41,252 nt of DNA from a virus. This document shows, piece after piece, positions 18,782 through 40,815 of the stretch. Where the stretch lies: IMG/VR virus record IMGVR_UViG_3300045988_175715, one strand, 5' to 3'. Below the pieces are notes generated by a model that was given only the letters and a program-made list of their open reading frames with translations, did not search any database and was not told where the DNA came from. Position 1 is the first letter of the stretch. Every line of letters begins with the position of its first letter. Position numbers and translations under genes: made by a program.

Positions 18782-19426
18782 TTAGGAGTGATGTTCTGGC
18801 AGGTTAAAGTAGCTTGGCTCTCGAAAAGTGGCCTCTCGAAGATTCGGGTGAATCTTCTCACCTTTGAAGTGGTAGTCTGCTTCATCGAGATAATTAGCTG
18901 TTACTTCGCCCCTTAACACATAATTCGAGATGATGCGCAAAGCCCGAGGAACTTGCGTGGCCCATTTTGAGTCTGCGAGTTCATTGAGCATTTTAAGTGC
19001 ATTAACATCTGTCATCATTTCTTGAAACTTGAGGGCCGCAGCTCGGAAGTTAACGAACTTCGAAAATCCGTAGTGCCCTAAGTTGAATATCAAGTAGCCG
19101 AAGACTGGCCTGATGACCTTGCTCTTGTACTCGGGCTGCGATTCTGCCAAGTTAATTGACTTCACAATATCATTAGCGGCCCAGCAGACAAGTTGATTGC
19201 GGTCTAGCTTCAAGCCTTTTTCAAGCCGCAATTTGTCTTCAGCTGTTAATTTATGACCCAACCCAATGGTCTGGTTTCCAGTGGTATCTGTGTACAGTAT
19301 GTCCGACCAGCTCTCAATTAAGTAGTACAAGTAAATTGTGCCCTGTGAAATTTTGAGCTCCGGCCAGTGGGCTTGGATTCGTTTAGTTATGGCGCTTATA
19401 ACCAAGCGCCGCTTATCTATTCCCAT
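18782..19426 (-). CDS. Endolysin, a T4-lysozyme-like GH24 muramidase
   Basis: IESWSDILYTDTTGNQTIGLGH matches the T4L catalytic region E-x8-D-T-x-G-x-x-T-I-G-x-G-H. A C-terminal SKWATQVPRALRIIS resembles T4L SRWYNQTPNRAKRVIT. Confidence 0.7.
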   Translation of the reverse strand: MGIDKRRLVISAITKRIQAHWPELKISQGTIYLYYLIESWSDILYTDTTGNQTIGLGHKLTAEDKLRLEKGLKLDRNQLVCWAANDIVKSINLAESQPEYKSKVIRPVFGYLIFNLGHYGFSKFVNFRAAALKFQEMMTDVNALKMLNELADSKWATQVPRALRIISNYVLRGEVTANYLDEADYHFKGEKIHPNLREATFREPSYFNLPEHHS

Positions 19427-19447: not shown

Positions 19448-20695
19448 TCATTGAAGATTCATCGAAGATTTGGCCGTCGAGTAGAAGCGCACATTGTTGG
19501 TACCAACCCAAGTAAATACTTTCTTCTCATTGACGAAGCCCTGCAAAATGGCACTGAAGTCAGCGTCCCGCATATCCTTAGCTGCGAGGCGGCTAAGTTC
19601 TGTATAGGTAATTGGGGCCTCTGACTGCCTGATGTAATCAAGCAGCTTCTGCTTAGCCTCACTCAATTTACTCAAACCATATTCACCAAGTGCCTCAGGC
19701 ATTAGTGCCTCCGTTGTGCTCAAAATCTCATCGGCATCTTCATAGATTTCTTTTGTTAATGTAGTACTGTTTGATAAGATGGCGATTGACATTGCCGTCT
19801 TAATTAAGTGTATATGTCGCCGCGCGTTGTAATACGTGAAGCGGAAATCCTTAACTTGCTTATTTAACATATAGAGGTTATCTAAAAATTCTGCTGCTTC
19901 TGGTGTTTCATCGAATGTCGTGTTGCGATATATGAACTCAATGTTCTTGAAGGCGTCAATTAACTCAGGCATCTTATCCGGCGTGAAAAATCTTGGCCTC
20001 GGAATCTGCTTTTCCTTAGAACCATATACAAATATGCACCTACTTACGAAGCCCTGCTCCATTTGCTCGGGCGGCAAAATTTTGGCCAGAGTTGCTGGAG
20101 TTATTGCTGATAATATGTTAATTAAGGGTTCTTTAATTTCTATTCCTTGCCTATTGTAATCTGAGCCGTCCCATAAGTGACTCAAGGTTGTGAATAACTT
20201 AAACGAGCCGGTTCCTGCAAATGTACTAAATTCACTATTTAAGATTAAGGGAGTGCTGAAATTCTTACTTCTTACTTTACATTCTATGTTACTTGTGTCT
20301 GAATTTAACAGGTCGCTTATATCATCTTCTGGTACTATGTGCTCATACTTAAGTAACTTCTTCTCGAGGCGCTTCTGCTGAACATTGGTGATGCCGGCCA
20401 TAAATTGAACCAAGCCGTTACTTCCGGCCTCAAGTTCATTGGGGGCTAAAGTAACATAGCTGGGAATTAGCGGCCTTATTGTATTTATCACCGTTGACTT
20501 TCTGACTCCGGCGTTGCCTACTAAGAGTATCATCTGATTGGGCCAAATTGTCGTGTCGCCTAATTGAAAGGATACTTCCCGAGCGGCACAAGCAGATGCT
20601 ATCCCAAGTAAGCTCCATACAAGGAAAAGCTCCGGAGCTTCTGTATATTGGTTGAGTTCAATGAAGCGCTTAATTAACTTGTTGTGTATGCGCAT
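19448..20695 (-). CDS. P-loop NTPase with a deviant Walker A. Possibly a replication-associated ATPase of the VirE/D5 type.
   Basis: The LLVGNAGVRKSTVI motif is the basis for the call. Confidence is low. Confidence 0.35.
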   Translation of the reverse strand: MRIHNKLIKRFIELNQYTEAPELFLVWSLLGIASACAAREVSFQLGDTTIWPNQMILLVGNAGVRKSTVINTIRPLIPSYVTLAPNELEAGSNGLVQFMAGITNVQQKRLEKKLLKYEHIVPEDDISDLLNSDTSNIECKVRSKNFSTPLILNSEFSTFAGTGSFKLFTTLSHLWDGSDYNRQGIEIKEPLINILSAITPATLAKILPPEQMEQGFVSRCIFVYGSKEKQIPRPRFFTPDKMPELIDAFKNIEFIYRNTTFDETPEAAEFLDNLYMLNKQVKDFRFTYYNARRHIHLIKTAMSIAILSNSTTLTKEIYEDADEILSTTEALMPEALGEYGLSKLSEAKQKLLDYIRQSEAPITYTELSRLAAKDMRDADFSAILQGFVNEKKVFTWVGTNNVRFYSTAKSSMNLQ

Positions 20696-21606: not shown

Positions 21607-24066
21607 TTATAAAGTCCTTTCTTCTAAAGTGTGTAATTTGCTCAGGGCGAAATTTTCGAAGTCGCCTAACTTATATGTGCTCATTAACCGTTTAGACCAA
21701 AAGCGGCCTACTTCACATTCAACGGGTACATGGAACTGGTGGCCATTGTAGTTAATTGGCGCCATCATCTGCTTCATAATCGAGTCTAAGAGGTGTAGTT
21801 TGCTTTCTCGAATGAAGAAGACAATGGAGTCATGCACCTGAACCACCGGAATGAAGTCGCCGGCTTTCAGAGCTTCCTTCATTAACTTGCCATATTCAGG
21901 ATACTCCATTGAGTCAAATTCCTGAGAGCGGCCCTCGAAGTAAGTGTTGACTAAGAAGCGGTTCATTAAACCAGCTGTTCCACCCTGCCCCTTGTAAGCA
22001 GCTATCTGCCGCAAAACTCCATCGACTTTCTCTTTATCCATCTTAATTGGGAACCACGTGGTAAATCCGAAGGCAGTTGAGATGAGTCCTTGATTCGCCG
22101 TTTGCTCGCCGTAGAGGGTGTAGTGCCAGTGAAGTAACTTCGGATATTGTGCTCTGTACCTGCGAAGCGCAATTTCGCATAACTTAATGAAGTCCTTTGT
22201 TACTTTAGGCTTCGGCAGGCCGAGCCGCTCGGCCATCTGCTGAAGTCCCGTTGTGCCGATTTCCGTTAGCAACCTAGCGTACATAGTCCTCGCTGTCATA
22301 AAGTAGTTGCCGCCGTGGCTAATTGGCTTTACGAGTTTTCGGGCGCTGTGCTTATCTCCTTTGTGCGCCAGCACTTCCTCGTAGGGGATTCCAAATACCT
22401 GACTTGCGTGAACCGCATGCGTATCTCTGTCATCAGTAACTACTTGAAACATCTTCTCGTCCGTTGAAGCGGCTACGAAATAAGTATCTGCTTGGCTGTA
22501 GTCGATGTCGGCAATTAAGTAGCCTTGCGGCGCAACGAAAGCTTCCCGAATTTCGGCCGTGATGTTCTGCAAGTTGCGGCCTTTATTGAAGTCCGTTGCC
22601 TTGGCGTTGGCTCTCGAGGTAATTGTGCCCGTGGCGTTAAGCTTGCAGCTTATCTCCGATGTGTTAAGCAGCTTCCCAAAGTCGCTCACGAACTTGTTAT
22701 TCTCTTGATATTCCTTGAGCTTGTTTGCGAACCACTCAATTAACGGGTGCTGCTTAGCTAACTGACTTAATGTGTCGGCGTCCGTGCTCAGGGCCCCGCC
22801 TACTGGTGTGGCTTTAAGTAAGTCGTAAAAGATTTTTCGCTTCGTTGCCACGCTGTTAATGTTGAAGTTAGGCAGGGCGTCGGCGAAGATATATTCGAAG
22901 AGTGCTTTTACCTTATTGGACTTAATTGACTTACCCTGGATAATCTGGGTTAAGTGCTCGCGGTCAACAGGGAAGCTGTGGAACTGCATTTCCATATAAA
23001 TTAAGTTCAAGCGGTGAATCTGGCCGTAATTTCGGGGCGCCCACTTGTAGTGGAAGTTAATTAACTGCAACATATAAAACAAGTTAGTTAGCGTCTGGAA
23101 TGAATCGAGGGCGCAGTAGCGTAGGTAGCGCTTGTATCCATCAACTGTGTGTGGCATTCCGCTTTCCTTAACATCAAGGTCATCTTCCTCACCTCCTCGA
23201 ATCTCCTCTTTCCAATACTTGTACATTGGGTTGACCGAGCTACTTACGTGCCATAGAGCTTTGCGACTCAGCGAATGCATTGAGTAGAAGAGATACTGGG
23301 TGTCCCATCTATAGGCCCAAGCTGGACAACTGTACTTAATTAGGTATGAGTTGTCATAGGTGCCGTTGTGGAAAACGAACCTAATGGCGGTGTTGCTGTG
23401 CAACATTTTAAGTAAGACAAGCTTCTCAAGATACACCTGAATGTTGGATTCGCCGAGGCGGTTTCCGGAGGCATACTCAATTAAGTCGACGCAGAAACTC
23501 AGTGGGGCTTTTGGGTTTGCCAAGTTAATTAGGGTGTATGAGATGCAGGTGATAAGTGAGTTACTGGTTTCAATGTCGCAGCCAATTAGCCACTCGGCGC
23601 CAGAGGCGCTACTTGAGTTCAACCACTCAACGAAGGCCCGAAATTCGGCCGTGCTGTAAATTGGCTTGTAAATGAAATTGAACTGGGGGAGTAAGTGGTA
23701 GCTAAGTAACACCGCCTTCTCACAGATGTGCTCATAGTGAATGCGGCTAGCTGGGTTGAAGAAGCTACTTATCTCTTTGCAACTCAAGTAAATGACGAAG
23801 CTGTTTTCGGCCTCTAGTGAAGTAACTTCCCCTTGGCAGAAGTGCGGCTTCTTGTGGTTGCTTGCATACTTAATGTCGTCTGTTATGAAGATGGTTTCCT
23901 TGAGGCCCAAAAGTGCTTCTTTGTTAATGAACTTGGTAACCTGATTGAAGCCCGTTAGGATTTTGACCTCGGGTTTCGGGAGGCCGAATTTTGCTGCTGA
24001 GTTAATTAACATCTGCCCCAGCATACGGTTAGCTGAATCATGGGAGCTAATGTTTAAGATAATCAT
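21607..24066 (-). CDS. Family A DNA polymerase with a 3'-5' proofreading exonuclease domain
   Basis: Exonuclease motifs are CDIETS, FHNGTYDNSYL and YCALDS. Polymerase motifs are DIDYSQADTYF (motif A), KLVKPISHGGNYFMTART (motif B) and VVQVHDSIVF (motif C). Confidence 0.8.
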   Translation of the reverse strand: MIILNISSHDSANRMLGQMLINSAAKFGLPKPEVKILTGFNQVTKFINKEALLGLKETIFITDDIKYASNHKKPHFCQGEVTSLEAENSFVIYLSCKEISSFFNPASRIHYEHICEKAVLLSYHLLPQFNFIYKPIYSTAEFRAFVEWLNSSSASGAEWLIGCDIETSNSLITCISYTLINLANPKAPLSFCVDLIEYASGNRLGESNIQVYLEKLVLLKMLHSNTAIRFVFHNGTYDNSYLIKYSCPAWAYRWDTQYLFYSMHSLSRKALWHVSSSVNPMYKYWKEEIRGGEEDDLDVKESGMPHTVDGYKRYLRYCALDSFQTLTNLFYMLQLINFHYKWAPRNYGQIHRLNLIYMEMQFHSFPVDREHLTQIIQGKSIKSNKVKALFEYIFADALPNFNINSVATKRKIFYDLLKATPVGGALSTDADTLSQLAKQHPLIEWFANKLKEYQENNKFVSDFGKLLNTSEISCKLNATGTITSRANAKATDFNKGRNLQNITAEIREAFVAPQGYLIADIDYSQADTYFVAASTDEKMFQVVTDDRDTHAVHASQVFGIPYEEVLAHKGDKHSARKLVKPISHGGNYFMTARTMYARLLTEIGTTGLQQMAERLGLPKPKVTKDFIKLCEIALRRYRAQYPKLLHWHYTLYGEQTANQGLISTAFGFTTWFPIKMDKEKVDGVLRQIAAYKGQGGTAGLMNRFLVNTYFEGRSQEFDSMEYPEYGKLMKEALKAGDFIPVVQVHDSIVFFIRESKLHLLDSIMKQMMAPINYNGHQFHVPVECEVGRFWSKRLMSTYKLGDFENFALSKLHTLEERTL

Positions 24067-24143: not shown

Positions 24144-24596
24144 CTAAGCTTTCGGTTTGAACTCGGTCCAGTCAATCTGGTTTCTGGTTACGCCGTCTTT
24201 ACCATTCTGCTCGAAAACCTTGTGCCAAGTAACCTGACCGATTGCCGAGTTAATTAAGTCCATCAAAGTTCCTTGAGTGTCTTTGTTGGCCCCAGTGTTC
24301 AGGATGGCATATTTTACTTTGCCCAAACTTTCAGCAATGTCTTCAGGAGTCTGGTTGAAGATAGGCAGGCTGTAAACCATTTTCTTGCCAATTATCTTGG
24401 AGATGTCCATTGAGCTGCTAACATCGGCGGCATCCTCAATTACGAAGTGAAAGACAATTCTGCTGCTGGTTTCATTGTCAACCTGCTTAACTTCTTCCAA
24501 TTTAAGCGCATAGGTACCTTTCGGCCACACAAAGTTAGTGGATACTTCCTTAACTTCATTAGAGTTGACGTCCAGGAAATTGATTTCATTGCTCAT
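24144..24596 (-). CDS. Hypothetical protein of 150 aa. Possibly a single-stranded DNA-binding partner of the Sak4-like ATPase.
   Basis: ORF with ribosome-binding site AAAGGA. The functional suggestion rests on position only. Confidence 0.3.
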   Translation of the reverse strand: MSNEINFLDVNSNEVKEVSTNFVWPKGTYALKLEEVKQVDNETSSRIVFHFVIEDAADVSSSMDISKIIGKKMVYSLPIFNQTPEDIAESLGKVKYAILNTGANKDTQGTLMDLINSAIGQVTWHKVFEQNGKDGVTRNQIDWTEFKPKA

Positions 24597-24672: not shown

Positions 24673-24746
24673 CTGATTAAAGTGCGATTCAGCACTTTAA
24701 TCAGAAGAGTTGCAAGTGGTTGCAAAATAATTATAAGTGGTTACAA
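24673..24746 (-). promoter_or_regulatory. Candidate middle promoter with operator-like repeats
   Basis: TATAAT on the minus strand (plus strand 24730-24735). It is flanked by direct repeats aagtggttgcaa (24714-24725) and aagtggttacaa (24735-24746). A 13-bp perfect inverted repeat ctgattaaagtgc/gcactttaatcag lies at 24673-24704. The -35 element is weak. Confidence 0.35.
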
Positions 24747-25697
24747 GATTAGCTTGTTTGAAGTTAGTGCAATCGCTGGGCCGGAGGCTTCGTGGGCAGT
24801 TTCTGACTCAATTAACTTGATGTCGTGAATCGGCGCTTCATCGAGTTGGTGGTTGTACTTCTGGAGGATTATGCTCGGAGTTAATTCACTCGACTGGTAA
24901 ATTTTGGGCTCGAGCTGCCGCCCTCCGATGCCGCAAACTTCTGAAGTTGCTTGAGCTGAAACATAATACTTGCCGGCCCTTGAGTAGAAGTAAAGGCATT
25001 CATCGAAGTACTTACTTAGAGCCTCTGACGCATTGATGGTAGTTGACAGCGGGTAGATTTTCCGCTCAATTACCTCACCGGCTTTGTTCTTCCGCTCGAC
25101 TGTCTTGGTGTGTGAAATCACGAAGACCGAGGCCGCTAAGTTGCTGAGCCTGTCAAGGAACTCAAAGAACTCCGTTGAGAGTACCCCGTAGTACTGCTGT
25201 ACTTGACCGTTGTACAGCTTATCCTTGTCAAAGCTACCCATTACATACAGCTGCTTCTCCCTTAACTTATTGAACATACTTTCCGCGAAGCTGGTAAGCG
25301 AGTCGAGGATTATGATTGTATGCTCATCAATGCGGCTTGCGTGAATGCAAGTAAATTGACTTCTATTCTTGAGCAACCGCGCATCGCTGACCACCTCTCC
25401 AGTATCTTGGTTGTAGTAGAAGTCGCACTTGCTTATCAGGGCATTGACGAATGGCAAGATTGTGATGTGCTGCTCGTCCCTAAGCTGAAAGTAGTCGACT
25501 TTATCAAGATGCTTGAACTTGGCCGCTTGGTTGAATATGATGTTCATTGACTTGTCGCAGTCAATGTAGATGATGTGGTAACCTTTGTCAATTAAGTTGA
25601 ACACATCAGTAACAAATGTCGTCTTACCGGTCTTGCCCTCGCCAAAGCAAAGGACTTTTATGACTGGTTTCTTATTAAGATATTCACTCAATTTCAT
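24741..25697 (-). CDS. AAA_24 family ATPase, a Sak4-like recombination ATPase
   Basis: N-terminal Walker A VLCFGEGKTGKTTF. The size and architecture are typical of phage Sak4 proteins. Confidence 0.6.
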   Translation of the reverse strand: MKLSEYLNKKPVIKVLCFGEGKTGKTTFVTDVFNLIDKGYHIIYIDCDKSMNIIFNQAAKFKHLDKVDYFQLRDEQHITILPFVNALISKCDFYYNQDTGEVVSDARLLKNRSQFTCIHASRIDEHTIIILDSLTSFAESMFNKLREKQLYVMGSFDKDKLYNGQVQQYYGVLSTEFFEFLDRLSNLAASVFVISHTKTVERKNKAGEVIERKIYPLSTTINASEALSKYFDECLYFYSRAGKYYVSAQATSEVCGIGGRQLEPKIYQSSELTPSIILQKYNHQLDEAPIHDIKLIESETAHEASGPAIALTSNKLIL

Positions 25698-25766: not shown

Positions 25767-26759
25767 TTATACCTCAAGTACCTTATATATCTTCTTGGTG
25801 CTATAGGCTTTCCTCGGGTCTTCGGCTTGTTGAAGAGTTAATTGACACTCCGCACCTGATTGACACCACTCGAAAAACGGGCACCGAGTGCCATAGCTGA
25901 CGCAATTACCGCTTTTGTAATAGGCCGCCGTGCTTAGGCCGTTTGACTCAATTAACCTTACAACTTGCCGCAGCCCGTTCATCAGGTTGTCAACGCACTC
26001 TGGGGTCTTACTTAGGTACAGAGGGTTAATTGCGCATTCGGTTCCTTTGAACCTGCAGATTAAGTAAAGGACTTTGATGCTTGAGATGAGCGAGTCCGCT
26101 TCCTGCTGGTCGAACCCAAGTAAGTTCAATATGTTAGTTACGTATTCAACAGTTTGCGGGCTCAGGGCATACTTGCTTAACTCCTCTTCCTCAGAGCTGG
26201 TAGTTGACGAGGTCTTAATGTCACATACTATGATTTCGCCGTTTGTGCGGTCAATGAAGATGGCGTCAATGAAGCCAATGTAGTTGACTTTGTCAAGGGT
26301 AACCTTTCTAGGGGCTGGCGCCACTCCGTTTTTGCGTTCATTGGTGTGCGCAATTAAGTATGTTGTATCAACCTTGAACTCAATGGCCGGTTTCTCGTTG
26401 ATATAAAGTAAGTCGTAGTTGCTGTTCTCGAACCAATTAACAAGCTCCCTCAAAATGCGGTAGGCTGTTAAGAAGTGGTAATTGCCCTGCATCGCCTTCT
26501 TCAACTTAATTGGGTACTTCAACATAAGCACCTTGACTGCTCCATCTAAGTTCCTTGTGATGAGGTAGAACTGGAATGCTTCGTGGACAGCGGTGCCAAT
26601 TATCGAGGCTGCCGAGCTGTGGCGTGGCACTTCGAAGTTACTGCACTTGCTTAGGACAAAGCGCATCGGGCAGCTTCCGAAGCTGCCTAAGGAAGAGTAG
26701 CTAATTGAGATGGCATTTCTGCTCGCTTCGCTCGCTTTGCTTTCATTTGCGTCGCTCAT
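25767..26759 (-). CDS. Cas4/RecB-like PD-(D/E)XK exonuclease with an Fe-S cysteine cluster
   Basis: IVCDIKTSS is the D/ExK motif. One N-terminal Cys (FGSCPMRF) and three C-terminal Cys (CVSYGTRCPFFEWC) match the Cas4 pattern. Confidence 0.6.
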   Translation of the reverse strand: MSDANESKASEASRNAISISYSSLGSFGSCPMRFVLSKCSNFEVPRHSSAASIIGTAVHEAFQFYLITRNLDGAVKVLMLKYPIKLKKAMQGNYHFLTAYRILRELVNWFENSNYDLLYINEKPAIEFKVDTTYLIAHTNERKNGVAPAPRKVTLDKVNYIGFIDAIFIDRTNGEIIVCDIKTSSTTSSEEEELSKYALSPQTVEYVTNILNLLGFDQQEADSLISSIKVLYLICRFKGTECAINPLYLSKTPECVDNLMNGLRQVVRLIESNGLSTAAYYKSGNCVSYGTRCPFFEWCQSGAECQLTLQQAEDPRKAYSTKKIYKVLEV

Positions 26760-27577
26760 TCAGATGCCTCCATTATTTCAAGGCAATTAAGACATATGGT
26801 CTTAGCCGGCCCGAACTCTTCCTGAGGTTTCAATTCGCCGCAAACCAGACACTTGACCCACCGAACTCTTGGAGTTAATGAAAACTTGATTACGTGATTC
26901 TCCTTGATGAGCTGCAAGCGTGCATACTTCAGGGGCGTTTTTCTGACCGCTCGATTAAGTTCAATTCTAAATTGACGCTCGACCTTGGGCTGGGCCTCCG
27001 GAGCCGCGGGCCAAATTGCAGGGTCAATTAAACAGGTGCAGTTAATTGCCGCAAAGCCATCGGCATCGGCCTCATTGACTGCTGTAAGAAGCTTGTGTTC
27101 CAAGGTGGCAAAGGAGCCATTGATGTTAATTACCTTGTTGCACCACCTCCAACAGGTAGCTTTACGGCTACTATGTGAGCCAACTGCTGTTGCTTTCTTG
27201 TACTCTGCTAGCTGGCTCTTTTCCTTAATTAACTTTGTTTCTCCTTTTGAAGATTGCTTGACTTCGGCTGGCATAATTAACAGTGAGAGCAGGAAAGCGG
27301 CCTCGCGGTAGTCAATGGCTTTGATGCGCCAATCGACGGAGTTGCTTAGGTGCTTGTTGATATATTGCTTTATCGCGTCAATCGTGCTTAGTGCATAATA
27401 GTGGCTTAAAGCTACTTCGACGTAAAGGCGCTGGGCACCGGGGTTGCTTGCTATGTGGTGCTCAATTACCGGAATCAGCGTGGCGCCACAGTAGTCCATT
27501 AAGTTGTTTTCTCCCACCGCGCTTAGCTTGACTGTGCTGCTTGTATGCTGATTAGTTTGTTCACAAATCAAGTTCAT
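26756..27577 (-). CDS. Hypothetical protein of 273 aa with a C-terminal zinc ribbon
   Basis: CLVCGELKP...CLNC lies at the C-terminus. A CWRWC motif sits mid-protein. Confidence 0.4.
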   Translation of the reverse strand: MNLICEQTNQHTSSTVKLSAVGENNLMDYCGATLIPVIEHHIASNPGAQRLYVEVALSHYYALSTIDAIKQYINKHLSNSVDWRIKAIDYREAAFLLSLLIMPAEVKQSSKGETKLIKEKSQLAEYKKATAVGSHSSRKATCWRWCNKVININGSFATLEHKLLTAVNEADADGFAAINCTCLIDPAIWPAAPEAQPKVERQFRIELNRAVRKTPLKYARLQLIKENHVIKFSLTPRVRWVKCLVCGELKPQEEFGPAKTICLNCLEIMEASE

Positions 27578-28160
27578 TGTCTAGGTCCTCCAAAAATGCA
27601 AGTTGCTTAGCTTTGTTGCTCCGTTTTTCGGCCGCTTTTTCTTTACGTGCTGAACTAACTGCCGACTTCGTGGCGTACAGGCGGTCGAATGAGTTAATTA
27701 AGATGCGCATATCCTTAGGTTGAACGCAGTTTAGAACCTCGGGATTCTCCTGAAGCCGCTCCATTATGGCACTTACTGTGGTGTCGATTTGCTTCAAGTC
27801 AATGGACTCTTCTATCTTACTCAGCTCATTGTGAACCAAGGATAGCAGTTCGCTTTGCTCGCTGTTAAGCTGCAGGGCTGCGTCGGCCGCTTCTTTGGAG
27901 TACAGGTCAATTAGGTCAGCCAGTGGCGGCATCGCTTCAATGCGGTTCATATAGTCAATTGAGTCCTCAAAATTGGCCAGCGCCGTGAGGTCGGTTGACC
28001 ACACCTGAGCTGATTGAACGGCACCTATTGGGGCATTCAATAAATTGACTTCCTTCGGAGCTGAGGGCTCTTCTGCTTTGCTTTCAACATTCAATGATGT
28101 GTTGGACGCCGCAGGGCCGCCAGCTGGCAGTGTGTTAAGTAATTCATTTAAGCTAATCAT
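27561..28160 (-). CDS. Acidic coiled-coil protein of 199 aa with a C-terminal basic stretch followed by a ...DNELDL tail
   Basis: ORF inside a tightly packed operon. Two other early proteins share the same C-terminal motif. Confidence 0.45.
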   Translation of the reverse strand: MISLNELLNTLPAGGPAASNTSLNVESKAEEPSAPKEVNLLNAPIGAVQSAQVWSTDLTALANFEDSIDYMNRIEAMPPLADLIDLYSKEAADAALQLNSEQSELLSLVHNELSKIEESIDLKQIDTTVSAIMERLQENPEVLNCVQPKDMRILINSFDRLYATKSAVSSARKEKAAEKRSNKAKQLAFLEDLDNELDL

Positions 28161-28371
28161 CTTTGTCTGTTTCCTCTATGTAAAGGTTGATTATTCCGTT
28201 GTTATTATACATCAAGTCAAAGTATAAGTAAACAAAATCTTTGACTGAATGAACTTCCTGCCGCGTTATAAGTCCATTGCGACTGAATGTTACAACTATC
28301 TTAAAGGGTTGTTCTTGGCGACGCTCAATTAACTTGATATGTCGCTTAACTTCTTTCAACTTAATTGGCAT
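28153..28371 (-). CDS. Small hypothetical protein of about 72 aa
   Basis: ORF overlaps both neighbours by 8-11 nt. The start codon choice (MPIKL) is uncertain. Confidence 0.3.
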   Translation of the reverse strand: MPIKLKEVKRHIKLIERRQEQPFKIVVTFSRNGLITRQEVHSVKDFVYLYFDLMYNNNGIINLYIEETDKDD

Positions 28372-28999
28372 CGGCGGCCTCGCCTGCGGCTTCGGCTTTG
28401 CCAATGGCTTCGCCATACCTGATTAACTTCTGCTCGACCCAATTAACTTGAATACCCCAATCAGAGAATAAGCAAAGGTGGTAGCTATAGGACTGCTGTG
28501 CAAGGCACTCGTGAATGTAGCTGCTAAGCTCCCTTCGAGTTACCTTGAGTTTCTCCGAGGCAATTAAGTTATAAACAACTTTGTGGCGCCGCTGTTTCAG
28601 GTGAGAGTCAATTACCTTGATGTTCCCGAAGCAGATTTTAGAGCCGTGTTCGAGCCGGAAGTTAATTAACTCTTTCGCCGGAATCAGCTTGAGCATTCCT
28701 TGAGTCCATCTACCTGGGTACTTACTGAAGCAAGAACCCTCTGAGCCGCAGCCTGTGATAGCTGGGTGCACGGAGAAGCGAGTGATTTCATTGAGTTTCA
28801 TAAGTTCCTTGAGTGCCTTGGCAAAATCGCCCATTGAAGCATAGACGCGAAAGGTCAGCTTGGCTTTCCTGTATGCTTTAACTTCCTCGGCTAGCCTGAC
28901 GGAATTTGGGGCGGCTTTCCGCTGGGTGAACTTGCTTGACTTGGAAGTTGCTTGACGGCTTCTGGAAGCCGGCTTGGAATATCTAGTTATTGTTATCAT
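28361..28999 (-). CDS. Hypothetical protein of 212 aa
   Basis: Internal ATG (MITITRYS) has ribosome-binding site AAAGGA. Confidence 0.4.
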   Translation of the reverse strand: MITITRYSKPASRSRQATSKSSKFTQRKAAPNSVRLAEEVKAYRKAKLTFRVYASMGDFAKALKELMKLNEITRFSVHPAITGCGSEGSCFSKYPGRWTQGMLKLIPAKELINFRLEHGSKICFGNIKVIDSHLKQRRHKVVYNLIASEKLKVTRRELSSYIHECLAQQSYSYHLCLFSDWGIQVNWVEQKLIRYGEAIGKAEAAGEAADAN

Positions 29000-29116
29000 C
29001 TTAATTGTCCTTTCAGTGATGGTGGTTTTAGCCATGTTTGCTATTAATTGCGTTGCGTTGTAGGAGTTACTTTGTAGCAGGTCTGGATTCGTTATTCGTA
29101 ACCTGGGCAGTGGGCA

Positions 29117-30160
29117 TTACTGCCCACTTGCCTTAGTTTCATCTATGTAAGTCTTGCTGGCGATTACTGGTTTAATTAAGTTGCCATCTCGATTAACGTG
29201 TTCGCACTTAATTAAGAGGTCAACTCGAAAGCCGGCCTCGAGCTTACTGCGCATTAAGTCGTCGATTCCAGAGCCGAGGATTACACGCTTTGAAGGCAAT
29301 GTAGTTCCGTCTGACAGCACGGTTTCGGCAGTGCAACAAGTTACTTGAGTTATGATTCGGCCCCTCGTTGTGTAGTTGTAGGCGAATGAAGTTACTTGAG
29401 CCGGAATGAACACAGGGAACTTCAGAGCGGCGACTCGGCTTGTGCGCTTGCTTGGGACGAAGGAGCTACTTGAGTCATAATAGACAAAGCCCTCCCAGTG
29501 GCGCTGACGCAGGACAGCACGCAAGGTGGTTTCGCTGTACTCCAACATAATTAAGTCCAAAGTCCCAAGCGGGCTCGCTGCCTGCTGCTCGAAGCTCATT
29601 CCCGAATTCCACTTAATTAAGTTCTGATAAGAGCCATCAAGTGGGTTGCGACGAGTTGCATTGAACATAGCGAAAGGCAGGAAGTCAAGCTGCGCTGTTA
29701 TGACTTTGCGGCGTAAGGCACTGGAAGTTAATGGAAAGTTCTGATGTTCGCCGGCTACGGTGAGTTCACCCAAGACAATTATACCTTCGTAGCTGTTATT
29801 GCTGTTTGAAGTTCCTGTTGAGTCCATCGCTTTAATTGTGATGCCCTGCAGGGAGTAGCTAAGGAACTCGAGAACCTGATTGAGATTCTTCAGCTGAGCG
29901 GCCTCAAAGGTGTAGCTTAACTTGGCGCGGCCAGTGAAGGTTAATTGCTTTGAACCTTGCTGCAACTTCATTGAAGCGGAAGCGTCAAGTAAGTCAAGCA
30001 AGGGAATTGCAGCGTAGAAGCCGTTGGCTTTCTCCACTAGCCGGATTACATCTGCCTGTGCTAATTGAGAGTCTGACTTAATTAACTTCAAAAGTTCGGC
30101 TCCGCTTTCAACGTGGAGTACTTTCTGAGTGTGCGTTGCACACGGTGTTATGTTGTTCAT
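29117..30160 (-). CDS. Hypothetical replication-module protein of 347 aa
   Basis: Long ORF. Its stop codon lies within an 8-9 bp hairpin at about 29104-29128. Confidence 0.45.
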   Translation of the reverse strand: MNNITPCATHTQKVLHVESGAELLKLIKSDSQLAQADVIRLVEKANGFYAAIPLLDLLDASASMKLQQGSKQLTFTGRAKLSYTFEAAQLKNLNQVLEFLSYSLQGITIKAMDSTGTSNSNNSYEGIIVLGELTVAGEHQNFPLTSSALRRKVITAQLDFLPFAMFNATRRNPLDGSYQNLIKWNSGMSFEQQAASPLGTLDLIMLEYSETTLRAVLRQRHWEGFVYYDSSSSFVPSKRTSRVAALKFPVFIPAQVTSFAYNYTTRGRIITQVTCCTAETVLSDGTTLPSKRVILGSGIDDLMRSKLEAGFRVDLLIKCEHVNRDGNLIKPVIASKTYIDETKASGQ

Positions 30161-30236
30161 CTTAATGTCCTTTCATTGTGTGCCTGCTGGCGCTTGTTTA
30201 TACTGTGTTACTTGATTGTGTTGTTTATATTTGCTG

Positions 30237-31994
30237 TCAAGCTGGCGCTCCTCGAAGCCACTTGTTAAGGAAGTCCTCAATGTAAGCGGCAGTTTCGCTG
30301 TCTGAGTTACTTGAGATAAGATTCTCAATTTTCTCCCTATCCGAAGAGCCGGGCAGCTGGCGGTTTTTGAGCTTGGCTAAGCCACTCTTGTTGTAAATTA
30401 CCCAAGCAAAGTCAGAAGCTCGAGTCAAGGCGGTGTAGGCGTATTCGTTGTTAATTGAGTTGCCGTTTTTCCAGTCAAGTAAATTGATGATGCACCGCTT
30501 GTACGTTGAGCCCTGTGCTTTGTAGCAGGTGATGGCGTTGGCGAGGAGCAAGTTACTTATCTCGCCTATAGTGCTCAAGCTGATTTGGCGTAAAGTGCCA
30601 TAGATGTCAATGAACTCTATAGTTAAAGTATGACTTGCTTTCTTTGAGAAGAAACCCTCTTCATCGGCGCTGTTTTGTGAATCCCCTGACGAGGCGCTCT
30701 GTTGGGCTGACTGCTCAATTAAGTTGTCGAGTTCATCAGGACTCAGTTCGCTGGGCTGCGCTTCGCTTCGCATAATGTCCTTATTCATCGGCGAAGCCCC
30801 TGCCGGCGCCACCACGTCTTCATTAAGTTGCATCTCAATTATGTGGCCCGTTGTTCCGTTAATGTAGCCGTCTTCGTAATTATTCTTCGTGAACATCACG
30901 TTGTCGCCGACGCCGAATAACTTAATTGCCACGCCGCAAAGCACTGCTTGCTTAGTTACGCCGAGATACTTGTTAAGCCGCTGATTGAGAATCTCTTGTC
31001 CAGTAGCTCCGACGTTGGTCGGGGTGATAATGCAGTCCTCTTGTTCATTGAAGCGCAGGTGGTATTTCTCGTTAATTAACTCAATAATCCGATAGAGGTC
31101 AAGGTAGTTTTCGGCCTCAATGAACTTAACGTTCTTGAACTCCTTTGCTTTGATGGCCTGTTGCAGAGCAAGTAAGTTGGCTGACTTGAAGAGGTGAGCT
31201 GCTTGGACGATGTCGTTTCCATCAGCTTGCCGGTGCACAGTGGTAAGATAATTGAGGGAGCAGCCGGAGTGCGCCCCAAAGTAAGCTATGCTTGTCTTGC
31301 CGATGACTGGCTGAAGCTGGTTGATGTCACCTACGAGAATTAACTTATGCAAGCTATGCAGGTCGAGGGCTGCGAGGGTTTGAAGCATAAGTTCGTTGGA
31401 TACCATTGACACTTCGTCGATAATCAGGACCTTTGTGTCAATTCGCTTGTTGGCTGCATTAAAGGTTGGCACAAAGCGCCGGCTTAGGCGGTACCCGCAG
31501 GGCTTACTTGGGTCTGGTATCTCAATTAACTCAGGCACAAATTGAAGCCACTTGTGCAGTGTAAGGCACTGGGGAATGAAGGGTGCGAGCGCTGGGTCTG
31601 ACTTAATTGACTTGATGATGTTAAGCACCGCCTTACCCGTAAACGCGCAGAGGAAGATGCTTGAGGCATCGAACTTCGTTAGCAGCTCCTGCAAAACAGC
31701 CTTCAATGTAAAGGTTTTCCCAGTGCCGGCGGCTCCAGTCAGGATACTTAATTGACTCGAACAGATGTTGCGCACCGCCGATTGCTGGCTTGCATCGAGA
31801 GCATTGTTAAGACAATTAAATTCTGAAGTTGCTTGTGCATCAGTGTCAATTAAGTTAGTTGCCGGTGAAGTTGTCGGTGAAGGCATTGTTTGTGTAGCGT
31901 CAATGGAGTTAGCTTGTTTCAACGGTGAAGGCGCTTGCGCCAGAGCCGATTGAAGCGAGGCTGAGGCAATTAAGTCAGCTAGTGAAATGGGCAT
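30237..31994 (-). CDS. SF1 helicase of the Dda/RecD type
   Basis: Walker A LTGAAGTGKTFT and Walker B LIIDEVSM. CYKAQGSTYKR matches RecD motif V/VI. The N-terminus and one internal insert are low in complexity. Confidence 0.7.
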   Translation of the reverse strand: MPISLADLIASASLQSALAQAPSPLKQANSIDATQTMPSPTTSPATNLIDTDAQATSEFNCLNNALDASQQSAVRNICSSQLSILTGAAGTGKTFTLKAVLQELLTKFDASSIFLCAFTGKAVLNIIKSIKSDPALAPFIPQCLTLHKWLQFVPELIEIPDPSKPCGYRLSRRFVPTFNAANKRIDTKVLIIDEVSMVSNELMLQTLAALDLHSLHKLILVGDINQLQPVIGKTSIAYFGAHSGCSLNYLTTVHRQADGNDIVQAAHLFKSANLLALQQAIKAKEFKNVKFIEAENYLDLYRIIELINEKYHLRFNEQEDCIITPTNVGATGQEILNQRLNKYLGVTKQAVLCGVAIKLFGVGDNVMFTKNNYEDGYINGTTGHIIEMQLNEDVVAPAGASPMNKDIMRSEAQPSELSPDELDNLIEQSAQQSASSGDSQNSADEEGFFSKKASHTLTIEFIDIYGTLRQISLSTIGEISNLLLANAITCYKAQGSTYKRCIINLLDWKNGNSINNEYAYTALTRASDFAWVIYNKSGLAKLKNRQLPGSSDREKIENLISSNSDSETAAYIEDFLNKWLRGAPA

Positions 31995-32233
31995 TTGGTT
32001 ATCCTCTCTGTTTAAGCGGCCTTGCGGCCGATGTTAATTAAGTCGTTAAGGTGCCACAAGGCAGCAGATGGTCGAAGACAAGTAAGTTAAATGTTTCGGT
32101 GTAAAGCACTGGGCGAACGACGAAGGCAAGTTAATTGAGTTTGCCGAAGCGAGCCGTTAGGCGAGCCCTGCTGTCAAGAAAAAAGTGTTAATTGAGCTCA
32201 AAAAACCACTTCGTAGGAAAAATCGTAACGCAC

Positions 32234-32320
32234 GTCCAGTCGGTAATTAAGTTAAAAGTTGGTCAATGTACTCGGATTTTGAATACCTTGAGCAAAAAAT
32301 AACTTAATTACCGACTGGAC
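32234..32320. repeat. Perfect 20-bp inverted repeat with a 47-nt spacer. It could form a large stem-loop or act as a protein-binding site.
   Basis: gtccagtcggtaattaagtt (32234-32253) is the exact reverse complement of aacttaattaccgactggac (32301-32320). Iteron-like repeats tagacaaaa x2 and the inverted repeat ttgcac/gtgcaa follow at 32340-32400. Confidence 0.8.
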
Positions 32321-32458
32321 AGCCCAGTAATTTCAAAGTTAGACAAAATTTGCACCATTCTAGACAAAAATTTTCCATCTAAATTGAGTGCAAATTTGGG
32401 AGTTAAGTAACTTGTTATGTTAAGTAAGCTGTAAAGCCGAAGCTGAAGCGAAGCAGGC

Positions 32459-33109
32459 TTAAAGGTCCAAGTCGTTGTCAATTAAGTCTGCCATCTTAAG
32501 CACCTTCTGGGAAAAACTAGCTTCGTCGGTGGTAACCGACAGAGCTTTAATGAACATCTTTAAGTTAGTTTTTTGTGCTTGAACCTGCTTGGCTCGCTGT
32601 TTACGCCGCTCAATTAACTCTCTTTCCGCTAAGCTAGCTCGGTGCTCGGCGCGTGCACGTAATCGGGCTCTTTGTTCCGCTTCAAACTGCTTGATTCGCA
32701 AGCTTCGATTAGCCGTTTCGGTGGTTAGTTTGTCAATTAAGTTCGATAGAATAGCCGGGGCTGTTTGCGGGTTTTCACTCAATTTAGGTTCATTTACGCC
32801 GCTGGCGGCCGAATCTGCTAACAATTTAATGTAGTCAATGATAGTCAAGCGGGGCAAGTGTTGCAAAACAGCAGAATAACCTGATCGGATTTTATCAGCG
32901 GTGTCGATTGAGCAATCAATTAAGGTAAACAAGCCAAGCAAGGCGGATTTTTCGGGCGGTAAATCAGCAAGTGTAACAATATGACAATCGGTGATGACAT
33001 ATTCAGCGAGGGCGGAAAAATCGGTAAGGGTAAATTGAGATAGCGTTTTAAGCCGGGGTTTTTGAAAAGCGTTTAGATTGTAATAGATGGTTGTGTTTAA
33101 GTTTGTCAT
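32459..33109 (-). CDS. Early protein of 216 aa with a basic helix and an acidic ...DNDLDL C-terminus
   Basis: ORF with ribosome-binding site AAGGA. Confidence 0.45.
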   Translation of the reverse strand: MTNLNTTIYYNLNAFQKPRLKTLSQFTLTDFSALAEYVITDCHIVTLADLPPEKSALLGLFTLIDCSIDTADKIRSGYSAVLQHLPRLTIIDYIKLLADSAASGVNEPKLSENPQTAPAILSNLIDKLTTETANRSLRIKQFEAEQRARLRARAEHRASLAERELIERRKQRAKQVQAQKTNLKMFIKALSVTTDEASFSQKVLKMADLIDNDLDL

Positions 33110-33216
33110 TTCATTGAATCCTTAATGTGATTGTGTGTGATTGTAATGTGATAGTTTAATTAAGTGATAGTATTTAGTTAGATATTACTAGTAAAGGTTG
33201 TAGCTTAGAGCAAGAA

Positions 33217-33240
33217 AGAGGGGCTCAAGCAAGCCCCTCT
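33217..33240 (-). terminator. Intrinsic terminator or attenuator on the minus strand
   Basis: agaggggct-caagca-agcccctct has a perfect 9-bp stem. It is followed on the minus strand by uuucuugcucu. Confidence 0.5.
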
Positions 33241-33256
33241 AATCGTTAGCAAGCAA

Positions 33257-34000
33257 TTAGATGTCTAAGTCATCTTCATCAATACTTGTTTCAACCTTAC
33301 GGTCAATTGCTTTTGCCGCAAGCGCAACAGCGTATCCGATATAGTCATCAGGCGTAAAAGTTACCCCGTGTGCAAAATTAACCGCATTAGGTGATTGCTT
33401 TTCACAATGCCATTTAATCAACGCACGGATATAATCAGCAACAGCAACGCTCTTACCTTTTACTTGAGTTTGGCCTAAAATCAAATTTGCTGTTTGCAAG
33501 TCAGCTAAAAACGTCTTAATTGTCTTCTCATTAATCAAGCTAGCTTTTGCCGGCATGTTGGCTTTTAAGCTAACTACCAAAGCCTTAACCAGGGCATTGA
33601 AAGGTTTCGACAAGGGATTCGCTTGAGCGTTGCCGCCGTTCTGCGGCGTGAGTATGTCGACAATATTATTGAGGTTAGGCAGGGTTAAAAGCTTGCGGAT
33701 GTAGTTACTTAAAAAGTACTTTTCCACAAACTCACGGCAAATGTCATTAAGTCCAGCGACTTCCATAACGTCCGGAATATTTGTATACAATACATCGTAT
33801 TTGCCCTGCTTATCTTTTATCAAGCGGCAAGATAATTGACGGTTGGAAAATCCATCAATAACCCTAACAGCGACGCTTTTAGCCGGTTCACCGGCAACAG
33901 CGGCAACTAGGTTACCATTGTCATCGGCGGTTACCTTAACCGCCTCACTAGCGCCGATTTTATTAAGTGCTTGTAAAAATTCTTCCGTTTCCATTTTCAA
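33257..34000 (-). CDS. Early protein of 247 aa with an acidic ...DEDDLDI C-terminus
   Basis: ORF with ribosome-binding site AAAGGA. Confidence 0.45.
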   Translation of the reverse strand: MKMETEEFLQALNKIGASEAVKVTADDNGNLVAAVAGEPAKSVAVRVIDGFSNRQLSCRLIKDKQGKYDVLYTNIPDVMEVAGLNDICREFVEKYFLSNYIRKLLTLPNLNNIVDILTPQNGGNAQANPLSKPFNALVKALVVSLKANMPAKASLINEKTIKTFLADLQTANLILGQTQVKGKSVAVADYIRALIKWHCEKQSPNAVNFAHGVTFTPDDYIGYAVALAAKAIDRKVETSIDEDDLDI

Positions 34001-34437: not shown

Positions 34438-34472
34438 CTTCTTTCCTTTCTCAGTTTGTTTAATATAAGGGT

Positions 34473-34501
34473 ATTTTACAGGACTTTGCTTTTATTGTCA
34501 A
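34473..34501 (-). promoter_or_regulatory. Leftward early sigma70 promoter. TTGACA, 17-nt spacer, TAAAAT.
   Basis: Minus strand reads tttgTTGACAataaaagcaaagtcctgTAAAATaccc, about 35 nt upstream of the 34437 start. Confidence 0.7.
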
Positions 34502-34941
34502 ACAAAAACTACATTAGAATACCAAAAAATTTTGCCTTGTGCAAAAGGGGCTATAGCACCCCAAAGACAAGTGAAGGGCTGCGGCGTATATAAATGTACC
34601 CTCAGCAAATTCGCAAGAAAATTGGCATTTCCAGCCGGCTGATGCTTAATTGACACGTGAATCTGCATTAACTGCGTTAGCAGCTTCGAGGGCCGGTTTC
34701 CAGTTGGGTGCTAATTAGCTTCACAAGTCAATTAACTCCAAAGTGGTCAGAGCGGCTTGCCGCGAAACTCGAGTAACCGGCTTAACCGGACTTCGCTTGA
34801 AGCTAATGAACCTTTGAGGCCGCTTTCTGGTTGTGAAGCTAATTGACTTCGGCTGGTCAGCCGCTGCTTGTCAGCGCCTCGAATTACCAGAAGTAGTTGC
34901 TTAATAGTATATTGACTATAGTAATTGCAGTAGCTGCCCTG

Positions 34942-34970
34942 TTGACATTTGCTGGATTATTTGGTAAGCT
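34942..34970 (+). promoter_or_regulatory. Rightward sigma70-like promoter. TTGACA, 17-nt spacer, TAAGCT.
   Basis: ttgacatttgctggattatttggtaagct shares the TTGACATTT...ATTATTTGGTA architecture with the promoter at 10023. The -10 element is weaker. Confidence 0.5.
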
Positions 34971-34994
34971 AGCTAAAATAGGAGGAATCAAGCA

Positions 34995-35903
34995 ATGACT
35001 TTAATCAATGAAGAATCAAGTGACGAGGCCACGAGCCGCAAAACCACTAGGGTGTTACTGGCCAAAATGAGTGCTGGGGCGCTAATGGCCTTTTGTGAGT
35101 TACTTGAGCGGGGTGACCTGGAGCAGGGCGATGAACTTGTCTATGTCAATTTGGGCTTCGAATGGCCAGAACAGGAGCAGGCCGCTGAAGCGCTCAAGGC
35201 AATTTGCAAGGAGAAGTTAATTAAGTTCACTGAGCTGCAAGGCCACCTTGAGTATGAGATGCTACACAAGTCAATCGAAAAACTCTATAGGCCAAGAGAT
35301 GCTTCACGGAATCTCCAGTGGCAGGGCTTTGTGCAGCGGTTGCAGCGGGGCCGCGGCTGGTGTGGAGGTAAATTGAGATGGGGTGAGTCAATTAAGTGGC
35401 TACTCATAAACCGGTACCTCAAGGAGCAGTACTTGAAGAAAGCTGCTCAGGAGCAGCTAGAACTGCACTTAATTTTCGGCTGTACCACAGAGCGCTCTGC
35501 TGAGCTGACTCGAAGCCGCCTTTCGGTGCCGGTGCTCAGGAACTTCAAGTTAATTAACCCCAACATCGCCAAGGGCCGCAGCAAGGCTTATTGCGTAGAG
35601 TGGTTAAGTAGGAAGGGCTGGGCAATAGGGCGGCTTTACACGGCGGGCTTAATTAAGCCAGGGTGCTGGTGCTGCCGCAGCAGGAACATCAAGGAGCTTA
35701 AGTTGATTAAACAAGAGTGGCCCGAAATTTGGCAGAAGCTCCATGAACTTGAGAAGTTAATTAAGGAACCTTACTACAGGACGCCTCGAGGCTGGGCGCT
35801 GCTTCAAGATGTTAATTACAAGGCCACAAAATTCACCTTAAGTAACACAAGCAACAAGGATAATAAGGCCAATAGTAGAAAGGGCAAGAAAGATGGAAAG
35901 TAA
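34995..35903 (+). CDS. Cys-containing hypothetical protein of 302 aa, upstream of terminase. Function unknown.
   Basis: Ribosome-binding site AGGAGG. Motifs GRGWCGG and GCWCCRSR are present. No methyltransferase, HNH or PAPS-reductase hallmarks were recognised. Confidence 0.45.
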   Translation: MTLINEESSDEATSRKTTRVLLAKMSAGALMAFCELLERGDLEQGDELVYVNLGFEWPEQEQAAEALKAICKEKLIKFTELQGHLEYEMLHKSIEKLYRPRDASRNLQWQGFVQRLQRGRGWCGGKLRWGESIKWLLINRYLKEQYLKKAAQEQLELHLIFGCTTERSAELTRSRLSVPVLRNFKLINPNIAKGRSKAYCVEWLSRKGWAIGRLYTAGLIKPGCWCCRSRNIKELKLIKQEWPEIWQKLHELEKLIKEPYYRTPRGWALLQDVNYKATKFTLSNTSNKDNKANSRKGKKDGK

Positions 35904-40128: not shown

Positions 40129-40815
40129 ATGGAAACTGAAAACGAACAAGTAAACGATGATGCCGGGTTTTTGGCCAGACTCAAGCAAGTCTTTACGTCA
40201 AGTCAACCCGAAGCGCCGGAAGAACTTAATCCGTTCAAGCAGGTGCCGCCGGCTCAAGCAAGTCAGCAAGCAGCACAAAGTGCACAGGGTGCACAGGGTG
40301 CTCAGCAGGGCAATCAGCAAAGCTCCGGTGATGTATTCAAGCAGTATGTAGCGAAGCAGAACTTCCTTGACGGCGTTGAATACGATGCCGCCGAGCTGAT
40401 GCAAGACCCAAGTAAGTTGGGAAACTTCATTAACTCTGTAGCACAGCGTGCTTACGGCAAAGCTCTGTATGATGCAACCAGTGTAATTGACAAAGCCATT
40501 GAAAACCGCCTCAATGCTTACGACAGCAATGTCAGCAACAAGATTCAGGCGGCCGTTTCAAGTAGGAGTCAATTGGACAAGGCCACTCGGGAGATTCCAT
40601 TGATGAAAGACCCAAGTGCCGCCCCGATTATTACGCAGGTAATGAAAGGGTTTTTGCAACAGGGCAAGTCGCTTGACGAGGCAACTGAAGCAACTAAGAC
40701 ATTTTTGCAGGACTTCAGTAACAAGCTCTCAAGCAAAAGCGCTGATGAAAAAGCAGCTGACAAGCATCGTAAAGACCTTGATGGCCTCTTCGGTAACTTG
40801 TTGATTAGTAAGTAA
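40129..40815 (+). CDS. Scaffolding protein
   Basis: 228-aa protein predicted to be helical and rich in Gln, Ala and Lys, with a QGAQGAQ repeat. It lies between portal and capsid. Confidence 0.5.
   Translation: METENEQVNDDAGFLARLKQVFTSSQPEAPEELNPFKQVPPAQASQQAAQSAQGAQGAQQGNQQSSGDVFKQYVAKQNFLDGVEYDAAELMQDPSKLGNFINSVAQRAYGKALYDATSVIDKAIENRLNAYDSNVSNKIQAAVSSRSQLDKATREIPLMKDPSAAPIITQVMKGFLQQGKSLDEATEATKTFLQDFSNKLSSKSADEKAADKHRKDLDGLFGNLLISK

Follow-up and report, generated by a model that had tools for sequence, protein, structure and literature searches.

The C-terminal tails of the phage T7 proteins gp2.5 and gp4 end in a Phe residue that is essential for function, and they are longer acidic runs than the tails considered here. 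The gp4 and gp2.5 tails compete for basic patches on gp5 (bioRxiv 10.64898/2026.05.20.726333; PMC10359462). [quoted passage not shown] Peptides that bind sliding clamps include the β-clamp motif, Q-phi-x-[LM]-[FL] or Q-phi-x-[LM]-x-[FL] (PMC11139829), and the C-terminal peptide of T4/RB69 gp43, which binds the T4 gp45 clamp, resembles the PCNA-interacting protein (PIP) box, and has the form Qxxhxxaa, with two aromatic residues (PMC3012046). Here, we analyze an acidic C-terminal tail, [DE]-L-D-[LI], that is shared by three proteins, pA, pB, and pC, of the phage in IMG/VR record IMGVR_UViG_3300045988_175715. The stretch of DNA that was analyzed, referred to below as the window, is 41,252 bases long and is the whole contig of this phage genome.

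RESULTS

Three minus-strand genes encode the same acidic C-terminal tail

All three carriers of the tail are encoded on the minus strand. pA (33257..33994; 245 amino acids [aa] from an ATG start) is the product of the second gene after the early promoter, and the last 9 codons of its gene (33260..33286) encode SIDEDDLDI. pB (32459..33109; 216 aa) consists of a variable N-terminal domain, a long predicted basic helix, and a tail whose last 9 codons (32462..32488) encode DLIDNDLDL. pC (27561..28160; 199 aa) has a disordered, variable N terminus, a helical core in which FEDSIDYM..RI..MP and IMERLQENPE are conserved, a basic linker, and a tail whose last 9 codons (27564..27590) encode EDLDNELDL.

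An earlier analysis that used only the letters of this DNA (here called the sequence-only reading) had listed the endings as ...SIDEDDLDI for pA, ...LIDNDLDL for pB, and ...LEDLDNELDL for pC, and all three are confirmed. It had proposed D-L-D-[LI] as the common tail, which is accurate for pA and pB; since pC ends in E-L-D-L, with its D-L-D further in, the common motif is [DE]-L-D-[LI]-COOH. It had also placed pA at 33257..34000. The ending of this gene stands, and the start is most likely the ATG at 33994 rather than the TTG at 34000, because the TTG is not conserved in relatives and public gene calls give a protein of 245 aa.

Among the 331 stop-delimited open reading frames (ORFs) of at least 40 codons in all six frames of the window, only pA, pB, and pC end in [DE]L[DE][LIVMF], and DLD[LI] is found nowhere else in window ORFs of at least 80 aa. 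The chance of such an ending is 9.9e-5 per terminus, and the probability of finding it on at least 3 of 36 genes is 7e-9. In a broader comparison, any reduced-alphabet 4-mer common to at least three termini was present in 155 of 20,000 random sets (0.8%). The three proteins had been described as otherwise unrelated, and this holds at the detection limit: hhalign comparisons between the three family alignments give probabilities of 0.3 to 2.3%. Based on these results, we conclude that the tail motif is real and is not a coincidence.

The tail is under purifying selection at the amino acid level

Loss of the tails in orthologues was the outcome that the sequence-only reading had named as its refutation. 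They are instead kept in all relatives examined and in three sister lineages. The sample of close relatives comprised 16 IMG/VR genomes, in which pB is 73 to 88% identical to that of the window, and 17 metagenome contigs. In the 25 genomes for which the fetched DNA spans all three genes, none of the tails is missing, and all 120 pB cluster representatives end in DLD[IL]. The fetched loci contain 26 distinct pA, 28 distinct pB, and 30 distinct pC sequences, all of which end in L-D-[LI] save one that ends in L-N-I, and the last residue is Leu or Ile in all 84 of them. The pA relatives end in ..LDI and the pC relatives in ELD[LI]. Terminal Leu and Ile swap freely among relatives, and there is no covariation within genomes between the last residues of pB and pC; the two residues are simply interchangeable.

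To find more distant relatives, the RecD/Dda-like superfamily 1 helicase encoded between pB and pC (30237..31994, minus strand) was used as an anchor. It was searched against 50%-identity representatives, and the sister helicases thus found recovered syntenic contigs of ~40 to 42 kb. In three sister lineages (L056, L057, and L058), the helicase is ~55% identical to that of the window, and the family-A DNA polymerase (21607..24066, minus strand, in the window; Pfam PF00476) is 62 to 69% identical. Exactly three ORFs end in LD[LI] at each of these loci, out of 124 to 177 six-frame ORFs per locus, and these are the syntenic orthologues of pA, pB, and pC. The bodies of the proteins have diverged considerably, with identities of 44 to 52% for pA, 46 to 55% for pC, and about 26 to 29% for pB. 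The sister pB proteins are mostly unalignable, with only 12% of ungapped columns invariant, and L-D-[LI] is among the invariant columns. The tails are SIDEDELDI, SIDESELDI, and AIDEDSLDI in the sister pA proteins; INFDELDI, INLDELDL, and INESLLDI in the sister pB proteins; and LEMELDL, LELELDL, and IDEDELDL in the sister pC proteins. Almost the same 9-mer is found on non-homologous proteins, as SIDEDELDI in pA of L056 and SIDEDELDL in pC of L058, and the extended consensus is approximately [S/L]-I-[D/N]-x-[D/E/S]-[D/E]-L-D-[L/I]-COOH. The tail codons differ synonymously between lineages (TTA/CTT/CTC/CTG/TTG for Leu, GAC/GAT for Asp, and ATC/ATT for Ile), which indicates that selection is on the peptide and not on the DNA. 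The tail is thus under purifying selection at the amino acid level. No related phage was found when IMG/VR was scanned with two sister helicases (P0121 and P0122), and the sole distant metagenome match (L078) was a spurious pattern match.

An outgroup lineage has three different acidic tails

The helicase of the outgroup lineage L059 is ~34% identical to that of the window. No ORF at this locus terminates in LD[LI]. There are, however, exactly three ORFs with tails that are both acidic and hydrophobic, ending in EEEEVIFDI, SDIEIFID, and ELDDDIIIVED. The carrier of ELDDDIIIVED is the L059 orthologue of pC (28% identity, E = 1e-10), and the carriers of EEEEVIFDI and SDIEIFID are encoded upstream of the L059 helicase, as pA and pB are in the window. 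A second pC from the L059 lineage ends in EEDDDVVVVED. If the three tails had one shared, co-evolving receptor, they would be predicted to be altered together, and the L059 tails fit that pattern. As far as these sequences go, they suggest that the tails have co-evolved with one receptor.

pC is encoded in a conserved recombination gene cluster

A hidden Markov model of pC detects weak but consistent homologues in 14 distant IMG/VR phages of 40 to 48 kb (hmmsearch E values from 6e-8 to 8e-3); a profile search of genome contigs with the pC profile gave no match. The 14 distant proteins have the same layout as pC, with a helical core that contains IM..[LI]Q.NPE, a basic linker, and a short tip. 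These tips (for example, GLDF, DLGF, GLGI, DDLM, DIEF, and NLKF) are mostly hydrophobic, and many are acidic. In all 14 distant loci, the pC homologue is encoded directly upstream of a PD-(D/E)XK exonuclease, and in 11 of the 14 a gene for a Sak4-like ATPase follows downstream. The window has the corresponding exonuclease (25767..26759, minus strand; Pfam PF12705) and Sak4-like AAA_24 ATPase (24741..25697, minus strand; Pfam PF13479 and phrog_124) and differs in that one zinc-finger ORF sits between pC and the exonuclease. From the constant layout and neighbors in distant phages, we conclude that pC is part of a conserved recombination gene cluster and that its C-terminal tip is ancient. Judging from the sequences compared, the L-D-[LI] form of the tip that pC shares with pA and pB is limited to the window clade.

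In the exonuclease/Sak4 recombination clusters of the distant phages (loci L079 to L102), the pC family is unannotated, and no third component of such clusters has been described. The distant tail-bearing proteins have no match in PHROGs. Distant phages also encode, upstream of the helicase, a family of 244- to 268-aa proteins that end in ...IDDLF, ...LDDLI, or ...VDDLI (L101, 8864-9622; L105, 2104-2838; L079, 957-1763). These ...DDL[FI] proteins were considered as pA homologues in view of their similar position and were rejected after homology tests proved negative.

In the window, the last 17 nucleotides (nt) of pC (27561-27577) overlap the predicted start of the zinc-finger-like ORF 26756..27577 (CxxC...CxxC near its C terminus). 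No such overlap exists in the sister lineages, which have two small Cys-rich ORFs in place of this ORF. Overlap with the downstream gene was therefore rejected as the cause of the conservation of the pC tail.

Features of the carrier proteins

The sequence-only reading had described a basic helical stretch ahead of the tail in pB and pC. A basic stretch is present in both, with net charges of +7 in pB and +6 in pC over residues −50 to −11, and its helical nature is borne out for pB. An AlphaFold2 (AF2) model of pB based on 60 close homologues (mean predicted local distance difference test score [pLDDT], 55) has a long helix at residues 114 to 190 (pLDDT, 70 to 83), after which another helix runs into the tail. 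In pA, there is no basic stretch (net charge of −1 over residues −50 to −11). The AF2 model of pA, made from the single sequence, has five beta strands at residues 19 to 70 and is too poor to interpret (mean pLDDT, 39). In tblastn searches of 50,697 phage records there was no significant match for pA, pB, or pC, and source annotations of the carriers read only "hypothetical."

The description of all three as early proteins is reasonable for pA; pC lies in the DNA metabolism cluster. The leftward early operon is headed by a near-consensus sigma-70 promoter (34473..34501, minus strand; TTGACA, a 17-nt spacer, and TAAAAT, with 11 of 12 matches), which is followed by a gene for a 105-aa protein and then by pA. 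Seventeen nt past the pA stop codon is a terminator-like hairpin (33217..33240, minus strand) with a 10-bp stem followed by a T-rich run. With this promoter ahead of it and this hairpin behind it, pA is plausibly an immediate-early product.

Comparison with known C-terminal peptides

Like T7 gp2.5 and gp4, the tail carriers are non-homologous proteins of one phage whose short tails are acidic and end in a hydrophobic residue. The window thus has, as T7 does, a short acidic tail on at least two non-homologous proteins, here in a helicase/exonuclease/Sak4/polymerase gene cluster, and both phages encode a family-A polymerase. The tails of the window phage differ from those of T7 in that they end in L-D-[LI] rather than in Phe and in that there are three carriers rather than two. 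In T7, in addition, the tails belong to an OB-fold SSB and a hexameric primase-helicase; the carriers of the window are not recognizable as either (no match in Pfam, PHROG, or PDB).

The tails also have the general design of the C-terminal peptide of SSB (SSB-Ct), which is recognized by Sak4, RecO, PriA, and others: an acidic run comes first, positions −3 and −1 are hydrophobic, position −2 can be any residue, and the carboxylate is free. They would also share its hub-and-spoke logic. The window also encodes a Sak4-like ATPase downstream of pC, past the zinc-finger ORF and the exonuclease. Unlike that of SSB-Ct, the topology here is reversed, with many carriers of the peptide and presumably one receptor. 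The canonical SSB-Ct sequence (D-D-D-[IL]-P-F) was rejected as a description of the tails, which have the form [DE]-[DNS]-[DE]-L-D-[LI], with no Pro at −2 and no Phe at −1. Searches of Pfam and PHROG gave no SSB family match for the carriers, and no OB fold or glycine-rich linker was detectable in them.

The β-clamp motif was likewise rejected, as the tails contain no Gln and their second position is Asp or Asn, not an aliphatic residue, in all three proteins and their orthologues. The PIP box was rejected because the tails of the window clade have neither aromatic residues nor Gln. What the tails have in common with clamp-binding peptides is that several different proteins share a short terminal peptide, which in clamp systems plugs into a hydrophobic pocket, flanked by basic residues, on one hub (PMC3012046, PMC11139829). 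Unlike in clamp systems, no clamp gene is recognizable in the window phage. On the best-supported reading, the tails would resemble the T7, SSB-tip, and clamp motifs in the way they work; by sequence, they fall outside the SSB-Ct, β-clamp, and PIP classes.

Genome organization, neighboring genes, and repeats

The plus strand of the window carries structural genes, including that for an SU10-type major capsid protein. The minus strand carries, from 18.8 to 34.4 kb, a leftward block of early and DNA metabolism genes, among which is that for a DUF3987 helicase-like protein (19448..20695, minus strand). The last gene of this block (18782-19426, minus strand) encodes a protein whose 90%-cluster members are named as a GH24 phage lysozyme by some sources; it has no Pfam match at an E value of ≤0.01. 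Megablast of the window found no close known phage. Among deposited phages, the best tblastn matches to the polymerase (Pseudomonas PaP2/119X-type, Polaromonas, and Gordonia phages among them) are ~22% identical to it. The contigs of relatives are labeled as human gut metagenome, and with 532 pB clusters at 90% identity and a pA 90% cluster of 831 member sequences, this phage clade is very common in human gut metagenomes.

Just downstream of the Sak4-like ATPase, in the usual position of an SSB gene, is a gene for a 150-aa protein (24144-24596, minus strand) that has no family match and no match by tblastn. Its C-terminal motif, IDW[TV][EQ]FKPK, is kept in the three sister lineages, and a degenerate form, FDWEDYKTAE, is found in a fourth. 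A possible scaffold protein, whose gene (40129-40815, plus strand) lies immediately upstream of that for the capsid protein, has DLDGLF near its C terminus, and its sister versions end in NDLDNLFSGLL and KELDDLFAGL, which bear a loose resemblance to the tails.

The window contains 75 copies, on both strands, of the 11-mer ACTTAATTAAC (consensus A-C-T-T-A-A-T-T-[A/G]-A-C, ≤1 mismatch), compared with ~1 expected, and 226 occurrences of the hexamer TTAATT. Most copies of the 11-mer are intragenic (for example, those at 3047-3057, 24249-24259, 30076-30086, 32033-32043, and 35216-35226), and within ORFs the motif is readable as Leu-Ile (TTA ATT) only. It is enriched in L056 (1.28 per kb) and L057 (0.96 per kb) and not in L058 or L059. 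Its possible roles include that of a site for binding, uptake, packaging, or modification. The gap between pB and the helicase (31995-32458) is an unusually long noncoding stretch of 465 nt that contains 5 to 6 copies of TTAATT-type motifs and a 40-nt inverted repeat (32234-32273 and 32281-32320, 83% complementary), and it may be an origin or operator region. The divergent intergenic stretch between the leftward early promoter and the rightward genes (34438-34994) contains inverted and direct repeats of the AATTGAC/GCTAATTAGCTTCA type and is likely to be a regulatory region.

DISCUSSION

We favor, with some reservation, the interpretation that the last 4 to 9 residues of pA, pB, and pC are a shared C-terminal docking peptide for one common receptor. 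The sequence-only reading had proposed such a docking motif, and the part of it that concerns a selected, short linear C-terminal motif is well supported; that the motif binds, that all three proteins bind one partner, and which partner this is are inferred. According to this model, three proteins that are mutually non-homologous at the detection limit would have acquired and kept the same peptide. Its acidic residues would guide the tail toward a basic surface of the receptor, and the Leu at −3, the Leu or Ile at −1, and the terminal carboxylate would insert into a small hydrophobic pocket. In this way, pA, pB, and pC would be tied to the same hub, or would compete for it, in early infection and DNA metabolism.

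Several observations weigh against this interpretation. The change of tails in the outgroup comes from the single lineage L059, together with one pC from a second member, and comparison did not establish that the two L059 proteins encoded upstream of the helicase are homologous to pA and pB. Beyond the clade, acidic-hydrophobic termini are only mildly enriched in general (18 of ~650 genes by our own count, compared with a roughly estimated 1.8% expected from composition). Profile searches of Pfam, PHROG, and PDB sequences gave no significant match for pA, pB, or pC, and the low confidence of the AF2 models of pA and pB gave no fold assignment. Finally, the tail would likewise be conserved if it acted solely within its own protein or served as a protease tag.

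With respect to an intramolecular role, each acidic tail could fold onto the basic, probably DNA-binding helix of its own protein as a DNA mimic or autoinhibitor, with no shared partner. The tails of T7 gp2.5, E. coli SSB, and HMGB1 fold back in this way, and the gp2.5 tail competes with single-stranded DNA for its own OB fold (PMC10359462). The basic stretches of pB (+7) and pC (+6) are suitably placed just ahead of the tail, that of pB in a long predicted helix, and a basic linker precedes the tip throughout the pC family. However, pA has the same tail with no basic stretch (net charge of −1), it is the particular L-D-[LI] ending, not negative charge in bulk, that is conserved, and neither the same 4 to 9 residues on three unrelated bodies nor a joint change of tails in the outgroup would be expected. 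We therefore consider it unlikely that the tails act only in this manner, though an intramolecular role is compatible with docking, and T7 shows both. A role as a C-terminal degron, in which the hydrophobic terminus would make the carriers targets of a host AAA+ protease (ClpXP, ClpAP, Lon, or FtsH) and so limit their lifetime after the early phase, seems very improbable to us. Known bacterial C-degrons are non-acidic (ssrA, ...ALAA; MuA, ...RRKKAI), and acidic residues beside the terminus disfavor recognition by ClpX. The position of the motif at the extreme C terminus, with a free carboxylate and an aliphatic last residue, would suit a degron, as would the early-promoter origin of pA at least, but the acidic context is atypical of known degrons, no protease or adaptor signature is present, and the retention of the pC tip amid recombination genes in very distant phages points to a constitutive functional contact.

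The receptor could also belong to the host, with the tails either imitating a host peptide such as the SSB tip or binding a host hub such as the β-clamp, so that the carriers are recruited to host replication and repair or block them. The order of an acidic run, a hydrophobic residue, any residue, a hydrophobic residue, and the C terminus is the layout of the E. coli SSB tip, D-D-D-I-P-F (PMC5928155). The different tail of L059 could mirror a different host, and the first products of appreciable size from the early operon, the usual place of host takeover genes, are pA and pB. Nevertheless, the tail lacks the Pro at −2 and the Phe at −1 of the SSB tip, it departs from the β-clamp consensus (PMC11139829), and the fixed place of pC beside phage recombination genes favors a phage partner, so that hijacking of a host hub, too, is a rather improbable explanation. 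There is hardly any probability left for an origin of the shared tail in chance or composition, or in a DNA-level signal (an overlapping gene, a terminator, or a dispersed repeat) that happens to be translated as L-D-L. In the window, the last codons of pC do overlap the start of the next ORF, and a copy of the ACTTAATTRAC repeat found across the genome makes up part of the DNA that encodes the pB tail. However, lineages that have neither the gene overlap nor the repeat retain the tail and encode it with different codons, chance would have to account for a probability of about 7e-9, and the comparison of orthologues refutes this explanation.

If the tails are docking peptides for a common receptor, we consider that receptor most likely to be a phage-encoded component of recombination or replication. 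Among candidates, we prefer the Sak4-like ATPase or exonuclease module, followed by the family-A polymerase; the RecD-like helicase or the 150-aa protein comes third, and a host protein comes last. The sequence-only reading had named the polymerase, the helicase, or a host factor. The Sak4/exonuclease module is ranked first because of the precedent of Sak4 binding to SSB and because of the synteny of pC, whose constant place beside the exonuclease, and mostly with Sak4, in distant phages shifts the list of candidates toward the recombination module. The Sak4-like ATPase itself is put forward as the putative receptor by precedent only. The polymerase is a candidate because of the analogy with T7 gp5.

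A more far-reaching version of the docking interpretation, which we find possible but rather doubtful, is that the tails constitute a phage-specific hub-and-spoke recruitment code. An interchangeable address peptide, ...ELD[LI], would direct at least three non-homologous proteins of this podovirus-like clade to one receptor, and co-evolution would have given rise to a different version of the address (...[IV]IFDI and IIIVED) on three tails of a related lineage. If this is true, it would represent a new, lineage-tunable organization of a viral recombination/replication factory, or else the hijacking of a host hub, and it would be distinct from the SSB-Ct, clamp, and T7 motifs. Should the code truly be different from one lineage to another, viruses would offer here a clean natural case of motif-receptor co-evolution.

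The known logic of short C-terminal peptides, as in the T7 tails, the SSB tip, and the clamp motifs, would be found here with a new sequence on three uncharacterized proteins. The motif provides an experimental handle on the receptor and on the functions of three ORFan families and of the widespread pC family.

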